NCBI GenBank assembly: GCA_016927495.1
Contig: JAFGMP010000040.1
Coordinates: forward strand, 3,585-67,584
DNA: 64,000 nt
Source: Candidatus Latescibacterota bacterium
Lineage (GTDB): Bacteria > Latescibacterota > Latescibacteria > Latescibacterales > Latescibacteraceae
Direction of reading: 5' to 3'
Part shown: piece by piece, positions 23,749-24,522 of the stretch
Layout of the letters: each line of letters begins with the position of its first letter
Numbering within the stretch: the stretch's first letter is position 1
Notes under the pieces: generated by a model
Databases searched by the model: none
What the model saw: only the letters and a program-made list of their open reading frames with translations
What the model was told of the DNA's origin: nothing
Program-made: the position numbers and the translations under genes

Positions 23749-24165
23749 ATGATTCAGTCCCATACTCTTAAACTAAAAAATGATATCAAAGAATTAAACC
23801 GTCTGCATAACCAACTGGAAAAACTGGCTGCTGACTGGAATATTCCGGGAAAACCGATTTCCCATATCGATTTGGCTCTTGAAGAATTGGTGACGAATAT
23901 TATTAACTATGGTTATGACAAAGGTAATCACATTATCATTATCTCGTTTTCTTTTCAAAACGACGTTTTATCTATACAAATACAGGATTACGGTAAAGCA
24001 TTCAATCCCCTTAATGCACCAAAACCCAATATTGATGATCCGGCGGAAAAACGGGATATCGGCGGTCTGGGCATCTATTTGATGAAGACTTTGATGGATA
24101 GTATCAAATATGAACGTATAAATAATTCGAATATTTTAAAAATGACCAAAAAAATAATACCATAA
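23749..24165 (+). CDS. Anti-sigma regulatory factor-type Ser/Thr protein kinase (RsbW/SpoIIAB-like HATPase_c)
   Basis: 138 aa. LALEELVTNIINYGY...IQIQDYGKAFNP...DIGGLGIYLMKTLMDSIKYER matches the GHKL N-box/G-box layout of RsbW-like kinases. Confidence 0.75.
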   Translation: MIQSHTLKLKNDIKELNRLHNQLEKLAADWNIPGKPISHIDLALEELVTNIINYGYDKGNHIIIISFSFQNDVLSIQIQDYGKAFNPLNAPKPNIDDPAEKRDIGGLGIYLMKTLMDSIKYERINNSNILKMTKKIIP

Positions 24166-24189
24166 TATATTTACCAAAGGAGCACTGTT

Positions 24190-24522
24190 ATGCTGATTGA
24201 TGAAGAAAGAAAGGGGCAGATAGTTATTTTAAAAATACATGGACGTCTGGATTCAACTAATTCCACCGAACTTGATGCTGCAATTGCGAATCTTGTCAAT
24301 CAGAATGAAAAAGCTATTTTGCTTGACTGTCAGCAATTGGACTATGTCAGCAGTGCGGGACTGCGCGTTTTCCTGAAAGCTTTGAAAAGTATGAGTACAA
24401 GCAAGGGAAAACTCCTGCTGTGCTGCCTTAAAGAACCTATTAGAGAAATTTTCGATATTTCCGGATTTTCAGGTATTTTTTCAATCTATGAAACTCAGGA
24501 AAAGGCATTAAGTCGATTTTAA
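24190..24522 (+). CDS. STAS-domain anti-sigma-factor antagonist (SpoIIAA/RsbV-like)
   Basis: 110 aa. ILKIHGRLDSTNSTELDAAIANLVN...ILLDCQQLDYVSSAGLRVFL is a STAS pattern with a conserved Ser (DYVSSAG). RBS AAAGGAG. Confidence 0.8.
   Translation: MLIDEERKGQIVILKIHGRLDSTNSTELDAAIANLVNQNEKAILLDCQQLDYVSSAGLRVFLKALKSMSTSKGKLLLCCLKEPIREIFDISGFSGIFSIYETQEKALSRF

Follow-up and report, generated by a model that had tools for sequence, protein, structure and literature searches.

Introduction

In the RsbU–RsbV–RsbW and SpoIIE–SpoIIAA–SpoIIAB systems of Bacillus subtilis, a PP2C phosphatase, a STAS-domain protein and a GHKL-type serine kinase make up a partner switch, and phosphatases of the SpoIIE family dephosphorylate STAS proteins. 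The same three protein families are encoded in the stretch of DNA analysed here, hereafter the window (64,000 nucleotides; positions 3,585 to 67,584 of the forward strand of contig JAFGMP010000040.1, GenBank assembly GCA_016927495.1), which originates from a Candidatus Latescibacterota bacterium. A kinase gene and a STAS gene lie there side by side, directly downstream of the genes of a type VI secretion system (T6SS) and upstream of a chemosensory (Che) operon resembling the Wsp operon of Pseudomonas aeruginosa, the last gene of which codes for a receiver–PP2C protein (REC-PP2C). We propose that the kinase–STAS pair and REC-PP2C form a three-protein partner switch, which would act as the downstream half of a chemosensory-driven pathway with the T6SS as the likeliest process under its control, a reading to which we give a probability of roughly 0.55.

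Each of the closest described systems shares part of this organisation. The P. aeruginosa Wsp system (WspA-F, WspR) has an identical gene order, and the receiver and helical stalk of its output protein are closely matched by residues 9-161 of REC-PP2C (58% identity over 153 aa to WspR structure 3BRE, E 1.1e-51). It differs from the present operon in that a PP2C/SpoIIE domain here replaces the GGDEF domain, that the receptor carries a Cache_3-Cache_2 sensor and that the expected output would be a phosphoserine switch rather than the synthesis of cyclic di-GMP (c-di-GMP). With the B. subtilis switches the locus has in common not only the three protein families but also the ATP-binding boxes of the kinase and the phospho-serine of the STAS protein; here, however, neither the operon nor the rest of the 64 kb showed a sigma factor gene, the phosphatase carries a receiver for which we propose CheA as the phosphate donor, and the proteins are not orthologs. 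Che clusters of the F7 “stage 1” type that carry anti-sigma antagonists and a serine phosphatase have been described (PMC7184735), as have clusters with receiver–Ser/Thr-phosphatase regulators among the alternative cellular function (ACF) pathways, of which a CheR fused to TPR repeats is a marker (PMC3447774). These too link a Che operon physically to partner-switch genes, whereas the window has a Wsp-type instead of an F7 chassis, a small kinase encoded on its own and a T6SS operon to which the whole block is joined.

Receiver-controlled PP2Cs acting with a GHKL kinase and a STAS protein on targets encoded elsewhere are also known from CrsR-CrsA of Shewanella and HptB-HsbR-HsbA of Pseudomonas (PMC6482189). 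CrsR and HsbR each unite the receiver, the PP2C and the kinase in a single chain fed by Hpt or hybrid kinases; in the window, up to 9 kb lie between the genes for REC-PP2C and for the kinase, and CheA is the putative feeder. A tie between a partner switch and protein secretion is provided by BtrU-BtrW-BtrV of Bordetella, which controls a type III secretion system and for which no sigma factor has been shown as the direct target (PMC8256260). The likeness is at the level of protein families (PP2C, kinase and STAS protein), and the Btr switch differs in its secretion system, type III and not type VI, and in having no chemosensory input. In the H1-T6SS of P. aeruginosa, the TagQRST-PpkA-PppA-Fha1 pathway allows an envelope sensor to control the T6SS through reversible Ser/Thr phosphorylation involving a PP2C. 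Its resemblance to the present locus is conceptual only (an envelope-level sensor, reversible Ser/Thr phosphorylation and a PP2C), the kinase of the window being of the GHKL type and its predicted substrate a STAS protein. ACF chemosensory systems with phosphatase outputs and partner switches not linked to sigma factors are therefore already known, while the linkage of either to a T6SS appears undescribed: a literature search, of incomplete coverage and so giving absence of evidence only, returned no paper in which either kind of system, STAS partner switch or chemosensory operon, is tied to a T6SS.

Results and discussion

A preliminary description of this DNA, made from its letters without database searches, had placed two genes at 23749-24522 and had read them as an RsbW-like kinase and its STAS antagonist with a conserved serine. 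Both the positions and the reading were borne out, the two open reading frames (ORFs) lying on the forward strand at the positions given in Table 1. The kinase matched HATPase_c_2 (PF13581) with 88.8 bits (gathering cut-off 27.4, E 3.6e-25), and the STAS protein matched STAS (PF01740) with 75.9 bits (cut-off 22.6, E 2.4e-21) and TIGR00377 with 81.6 bits (cut-off 53.45). The N box (E46/N50), G1 box (D80/G82) and G2 box (G105-G108) of the kinase were invariant across 20 homologs, and these ATP-binding boxes align to those of RsbW (6M36); the kinase also aligns to SpoIIAB (1TIL). Residues 51-57 of the STAS protein read DYVSSAG, and Ser55 (within DYVSSAGL) is aligned with the phospho-serine of SpoIIAA (FMDSSGLG in 1TH8_B), whence its predicted role as phospho-acceptor. 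Scores stayed well below the NCBIfam equivalog cut-offs both for the kinase (55.9 against 145 for RsbW, NF003144; 43.8 against 135 for SpoIIAB, TIGR01925) and for the STAS protein (60.2 against 114.75 for SpoIIAA, TIGR02886), and on this profile evidence the two proteins are best classed as members of the RsbW/SpoIIAB and SpoIIAA families, not as orthologs.

The two genes are separated by 24 nt, with AAGGAG preceding the STAS start codon. All genes from position 85 to 34322, which include the T6SS genes, the pair and the Che operon, lie on the forward strand with gaps of -37 to 172 nt. The widest of these, the AT-rich spacer between the STAS and chemoreceptor genes, contains no convincing promoter or terminator: scan counts were at background, no site resembling a terminator was seen in it, and the sole promoter-like match overlaps the start codon of the chemoreceptor gene. 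It gave no Rfam match, and a search for repeats yielded nothing meaningful.

The preliminary description had further called the switch an orphan and treated the Che cluster as a mere neighbour, and both views had to be abandoned. The operon follows the Wsp gene order, with a Cache-type chemoreceptor, CheW, CheR-TPR, a second CheW, CheA with a receiver, CheB and then REC-PP2C (33123-34322), a WspR-like receiver–phosphatase that travels with the pair in three arrangements (see below); we accordingly read this PP2C, which the preliminary description had not connected with the pair, as the probable third partner and the cluster as the probable input. In the chemoreceptor, sequence inspection showed the Cache region to be bracketed by two hydrophobic segments. 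REC-PP2C gave no match to GGDEF, the output domain expected of a Wsp system, and has a SpoIIE/PP2C domain in its stead. As judged from its predicted domains, the operon keeps the Wsp chassis but carries a PP2C partner-switch phosphatase in place of the GGDEF output. Pfam scans of the window ORFs revealed no further PP2C gene and no Hanks kinase or FHA gene. REC-PP2C belongs to a large family (7998 matches at E below 1e-20), and among the best 120 of these 7998 matches identities of 63-85% are kept across phyla; the closest relative (L176, 85% identity) is encoded on a frameshifted long-read contig that stops within the Che operon.

The CheW-like protein in the WspD position has an N-terminal extension of about 75 aa with four cysteines spaced C-x11-C-x8-C-x2-C, as seen in its translation only; this extension may bind a metal.

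Directly upstream of the kinase gene lies a gene for a conserved uncharacterised protein of 258 aa, which we call ORPH and for which neither Pfam nor NCBIfam gave a match. Its homologs (45-69% identity) number more than 214, do not vary in length and come from Desulfobacterota, Syntrophales, Acidobacteriota and Latescibacterota. In a set of 80 species-representative genomes, 63 had T6SS genes within 3 kb of ORPH, which followed a PAAR-like/DUF3540 gene in 36 and ClpV in 14. Its AlphaFold2 model (predicted local distance difference test score 91.5) consists of an N-terminal flavodoxin/TIR/receiver-like domain and a C-terminal beta-sandwich. The order of the spike module upstream of it is repeated in five other loci (L007, L010, L013, L169 and L170). 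The genes preceding the pair, taken for effector genes in the preliminary description, are thus conserved spike-accessory genes (DUF2169, pentapeptide-repeat, DUF3540 and PAAR-like) followed by ORPH, which itself looks like a widespread, unnamed and conserved T6SS accessory protein rather than a variable effector. No gene for a Hanks-type kinase, an FHA protein, a stand-alone PP2C or a Tag lipoprotein was found in the visible T6SS locus, the part 5' of TssM lying outside the window.

The pair was then compared with relatives whose kinases are 44-64% identical to that of the window; the STAS proteins of these loci are 44-73%, REC-PP2C 59-73%, ORPH 61-74% and CheA 47-55% identical to their counterparts in the window. 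The tail of the T6SS operon, the kinase–STAS pair and the Che/REC-PP2C operon stay adjacent among them in three arrangements. In arrangement A, that of the window, ORPH, kinase, STAS and Che operon are all co-directional. In arrangement B (L002, L169 from GCA_021372535.1, and L170) the Che operon runs towards ORPH, kinase and STAS, which brings the STAS and REC-PP2C genes tail to tail with 38-42 nt between them; on two contigs of about 2.2 kb (L003 and L089), only a kinase–STAS pair facing a REC-PP2C gene is visible. Arrangement C runs ORPH, Che operon, REC-PP2C, kinase and STAS, and was found in bacterium SM23_31 (L118, on the same contig as L009) and in L104, where ORPH lies beyond the contig. 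A further contig (L010) carries ORPH followed by the chemoreceptor, CheW and CheR genes and then ends. REC-PP2C adjoins the STAS or the kinase gene in L002, L089, L104, L118, L169 and L170, and the Wsp gene order recurs in L118, L169, L170 and L172-L174.

Where the arrangement is A or B, a gap of 5-31 nt (16 nt in the window) separates ORPH from the kinase gene on the same strand, which suggests that the latter would belong to the T6SS operon. This position directly after the last T6SS gene is kept in at least five divergent lineages, and the adjacency of ORPH and kinase holds even where the Che operon is inverted. A neighbour-joining tree of 65 concatenated kinase and STAS sequences (200 bootstrap replicates), a simple method applied to short proteins, recovered the A and B pairs as one monophyletic group and the C pairs as another, each with 99.5% bootstrap support; the two never formed an exclusive group (0/200 replicates), and pairs from unrelated contexts fell between them. 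This is suggestive only, but two kinase/STAS lineages may have become attached separately to one block. Conservation through such rearrangement argues for a functional connection.

Given these arrangements and the known action of SpoIIE-family PP2Cs on STAS proteins, REC-PP2C is probably the cognate phosphatase of the pair and the Che pathway its input. The T6SS is suggested as the likeliest controlled process by the fact that the pair ends the vgrG/PAAR operon at its 3' side in most relatives while the Che operon always abuts. A T6SS-related target had been considered plausible in the preliminary description, and the synteny in the lineages mentioned above speaks for it; the target itself is deduced from gene order only, and we put forward the T6SS (its assembly, firing or expression) as the output of the switch only tentatively, at somewhat less than even odds.

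From the observed domain identities, motifs, gene order and conservation we infer a scheme in which every protein–protein contact, every phosphotransfer and the target are predictions. A signal perceived at the periplasmic Cache receptor would alter the autophosphorylation of CheA, with CheR-TPR and CheB providing adaptation. Phosphate would pass from CheA to the WspR-like receiver of REC-PP2C and shift its phosphatase activity, and the balance between REC-PP2C and the GHKL kinase would set the phosphorylation of Ser55 on the STAS protein. According to its phosphorylation, the latter would bind either the kinase or another protein, thereby freeing or trapping a target.

Several observations weigh against this proposal. 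The evidence for input and output alike is, as things stand, that of gene order, and the organisms are uncultured. Che/REC-PP2C operons of other phyla (L172, L173 and L174; 63-69% REC-PP2C identity) have neither a pair nor a T6SS nearby, and in one genome the Che operon (L173) and the ORPH-T6SS locus (L066) lie on different contigs. Conversely, none of 65 species-genome ORPH-T6SS loci with at least 2.5 kb of downstream sequence has a pair within 2.5 kb downstream of ORPH, and a GC-rich locus of Latescibacterota (L013) also has none, from which it follows that the T6SS can do without the switch. In L005 and L006 the gene after STAS codes for a class III cyclase-TPR protein convergent on STAS and not for the Che operon, although these contigs stop 2-3 kb further on. 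The three-way linkage is a lineage-restricted add-on, limited to Latescibacteria-like and SM23_31-like lineages, and may in part be owed to common ancestry or to the transfer of an island. We looked for a link between T6SS and Che genes beyond the Latescibacteria-like set, and the two candidate loci, both from Desulfobacteraceae, were rejected: the Che genes of L046 form an unrelated cluster whose output is a hybrid kinase, and L052 has a CheR by itself. The 45%-identical kinase homolog P0011 was likewise discarded as a comparator: it is encoded beside CHASE histidine kinases with no STAS gene and represents a different system.

Table 1 Genes and intergenic features of the window, with positions counted from its first nucleotide
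Feature	Position	Strand	Basis or remark
T6SS core: TssM (5'-truncated by the window), TssA, TssB, TssC, Hcp, TssE, TssF, TssG, ClpV	85-13094	+	Pfam
T6SS spike module: VgrG, DUF2169, two pentapeptide-repeat proteins, DUF3540, PAAR-like	13219-22892	+	Pfam
ORPH, conserved uncharacterised T6SS-associated protein, 258 aa	22956-23732	+	Homologs in T6SS loci; directly 5' of kinase
RsbW/SpoIIAB-type GHKL serine kinase, 138 aa	23749-24165	+	PF13581; predicted kinase and partner-binding half of switch
Single-domain STAS protein, 110 aa, predicted phospho-acceptor Ser55	24190-24522	+	PF01740, TIGR00377
AT-rich spacer, STAS to chemoreceptor gene, 172 nt	24523-24694		Sequence
Transmembrane chemoreceptor, periplasmic Cache_3-Cache_2 sensor (WspA position)	24695-26914	+	PF17201 E 4.3e-96; MCPsignal E 1.2e-31
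CheW (WspB position)	26999-27460	+	PF01584 E 2.1e-25
CheR methyltransferase with C-terminal TPR (WspC position)	27464-28726	+	CheR E 8.6e-40; TPR_8 E 1.2e-7
Second CheW-like protein, Cys-rich N-terminus (WspD position)	28723-29397	+	PF01584 E 1.4e-16
Hybrid CheA: two Hpt, HATPase, CheW-like, C-terminal receiver (WspE position)	29394-32093	+	Hpt, HATPase_c, CheW and Response_reg matches
CheB methylesterase (WspF position)	32080-33117	+	CheB_methylest E 1.7e-53; Response_reg
REC-PP2C, receiver–PP2C (SpoIIE family) phosphatase, last gene and output response regulator of Che operon, predicted phosphatase of phosphorylated STAS	33123-34322	+	Response_reg E 1.1e-18; SpoIIE E 6e-35

The main rival to this proposal is that the genes encode a canonical anti-sigma/anti-anti-sigma pair, in which the kinase would sequester a sigma factor encoded elsewhere (a stress, stationary-phase or T6SS-driving one) and the Che/REC-PP2C pathway would be a plain input, as RsbU is for RsbV-RsbW. 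The best matches of the pair among solved structures and NCBIfam models are indeed RsbW, SpoIIAB, SpoIIAA and RsbV, and the kinase is a bare domain of 138 aa, as are true anti-sigma factors, even though it scores far under the RsbW and SpoIIAB equivalog cut-offs. The sigma factor itself was sought at several distances. The preliminary description had found no sigma factor gene in the 64 kb, and this was upheld by Pfam scans of all sizeable ORFs, which gave no Sigma70 domain, and by sigma region-2 probes, which also had no match in the window. A cognate sigma factor gene adjacent to the pair in related genomes had been named beforehand as a sign of an ordinary sigma-regulating switch; in the Pfam-annotated contexts of the relatives with arrangements A, B or C, none adjoins the pair, and on this count the preliminary reading stands. 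Among the proteins encoded next to more distant kinase homologs (92 representatives, classified by Pfam), no Sigma70 family had as many as two members. Over 2.1 Mb of loci, phmmer searches with the region-2 probes gave three ECF-like matches only, each at least 3 kb from the pair; the group-3 probes had no positive control, so that their sensitivity for SigB/SigF-like factors is unproven.

These negative results carry less weight than the preliminary description had allowed when it passed from the missing sigma gene to a non-sigma target. RpoS is controlled by CrsR-CrsA and by HsbR-HsbA, yet the paper on these systems does not anywhere place rpoS within the hsb or the crs cluster (PMC6482189). 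Distance is in consequence no counter-argument, the absence of a sigma gene close by says little in favour of a non-sigma target and a remote sigma factor stays the foremost competitor, albeit one that we consider unlikely. It would be compatible with a role in type VI secretion if the sigma factor in question drives T6SS genes.

A less probable alternative still is that the Wsp-like output acts on some other target, such as a nucleotide cyclase, a c-di-GMP enzyme or the chemoreceptor array, and that the position beside the T6SS reflects shared descent or co-transfer on an island. Wsp normally controls c-di-GMP, STAS proteins of Pseudomonas bind diguanylate cyclases or anti-sigma factors (PMC6482189) and links between STAS proteins and chemoreceptors have been proposed (PMC9239204), yet the window contains no cyclase, GGDEF or EAL gene. 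The cyclase-TPR gene convergent on STAS in L005 and L006, and a cyclic-nucleotide-binding protein conserved beside a sister clade of kinase–STAS pairs, are in keeping with a nucleotide-related target, and in most other lineages the T6SS and the Che operon are unlinked. Set against this, the adjacency to the T6SS tail has outlasted both the inversion of the Che operon and the relocation of the pair, and the short gaps of 5-31 nt to the last T6SS gene permit co-transcription. We thus regard a target of this kind as improbable.

That the pair represents T6SS cargo or immunity genes merely resembling signalling proteins, as its place after vgrG and PAAR-like genes, a usual site for effector and immunity genes, might suggest, can be set aside as highly improbable, given that the ATP-binding motifs and the STAS phospho-serine are kept across homologs, that kinase and STAS domains were the only Pfam matches, with no toxin or secretion-associated family among them, that the predicted cognate phosphatase is conserved alongside the pair and that in arrangement C the pair stands at the end of the Che operon and not after a PAAR gene.

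If the T6SS is the target of the proposed chemosensory-driven switch, the locus would constitute a second independent route, besides the PpkA/Fha threonine pathway, by which an envelope or chemical signal is tied to T6SS activity. A more specific version, in which a Wsp-type array gates T6SS assembly or firing post-translationally through the REC-PP2C/GHKL-kinase/STAS switch at the end of the T6SS operon, seems to us doubtful, if a shade less so than the remote sigma factor; were it true, the locus would be a functional analogue of TagQRST-PpkA-PppA-Fha made up of a wholly different set of components, and no partner switch would have been assigned to a T6SS before it. The targets of most sigma-distant partner switches and the outputs of most ACF chemosensory systems are not known. 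Against this background the locus offers a complete wiring diagram, from the receptor to a switch that lies physically inside a T6SS operon, and, with the T6SS as target, it would supply testable partners for the REC-PP2C regulators, a large family with about 8000 relatives at E below 1e-20.

Additional features of the window and related loci

A gene on the reverse strand (34309-35535) points towards the REC-PP2C gene and shares 14 nt with the 3' end of the latter; it codes for a secreted-type protein with CarboxypepD_reg, Big_7 and Spondin_N domains (the last with E 7e-46). Further downstream, positions 36032-60667 of the forward strand hold eight genes for PQQ_2/BamB-like beta-propeller proteins, interleaved with ferredoxin-like, NuoF-like and GltD-like oxidoreductases, together with genes for an NHL-repeat protein, a GT4 glycosyltransferase and an ABC/FtsX transporter. 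This region is an unusual redox cluster, possibly extracytoplasmic. An ORF of 413 aa (18753-19994, reverse strand) running antisense within the pentapeptide-repeat genes had no Pfam match and was dismissed as almost certainly an artefact of the codon periodicity of the repeats, not a gene.

Two entries bear archaeal labels. P0044 is assigned to Methanobacteriota. The L010 contig (DATKXY010000275.1) has the label “archaeon” although its T6SS spike module is bacterial and is accompanied by ORPH and a Wsp-like Che operon; this contig is probably mis-binned.

In the other clade of kinase–STAS pairs mentioned above (L106, L109, L119, L126, L130, L134, L144 and L162), the conserved cyclic-nucleotide-binding protein has 174 aa and is encoded directly upstream of the pair. 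In six of the eight loci its gene follows one whose product has about 836-841 aa, or 605 aa in the case of L126. Taken with the cyclase-TPR genes of L005 and L006, this arrangement indicates that cyclic nucleotide signalling may be linked to partner switches.

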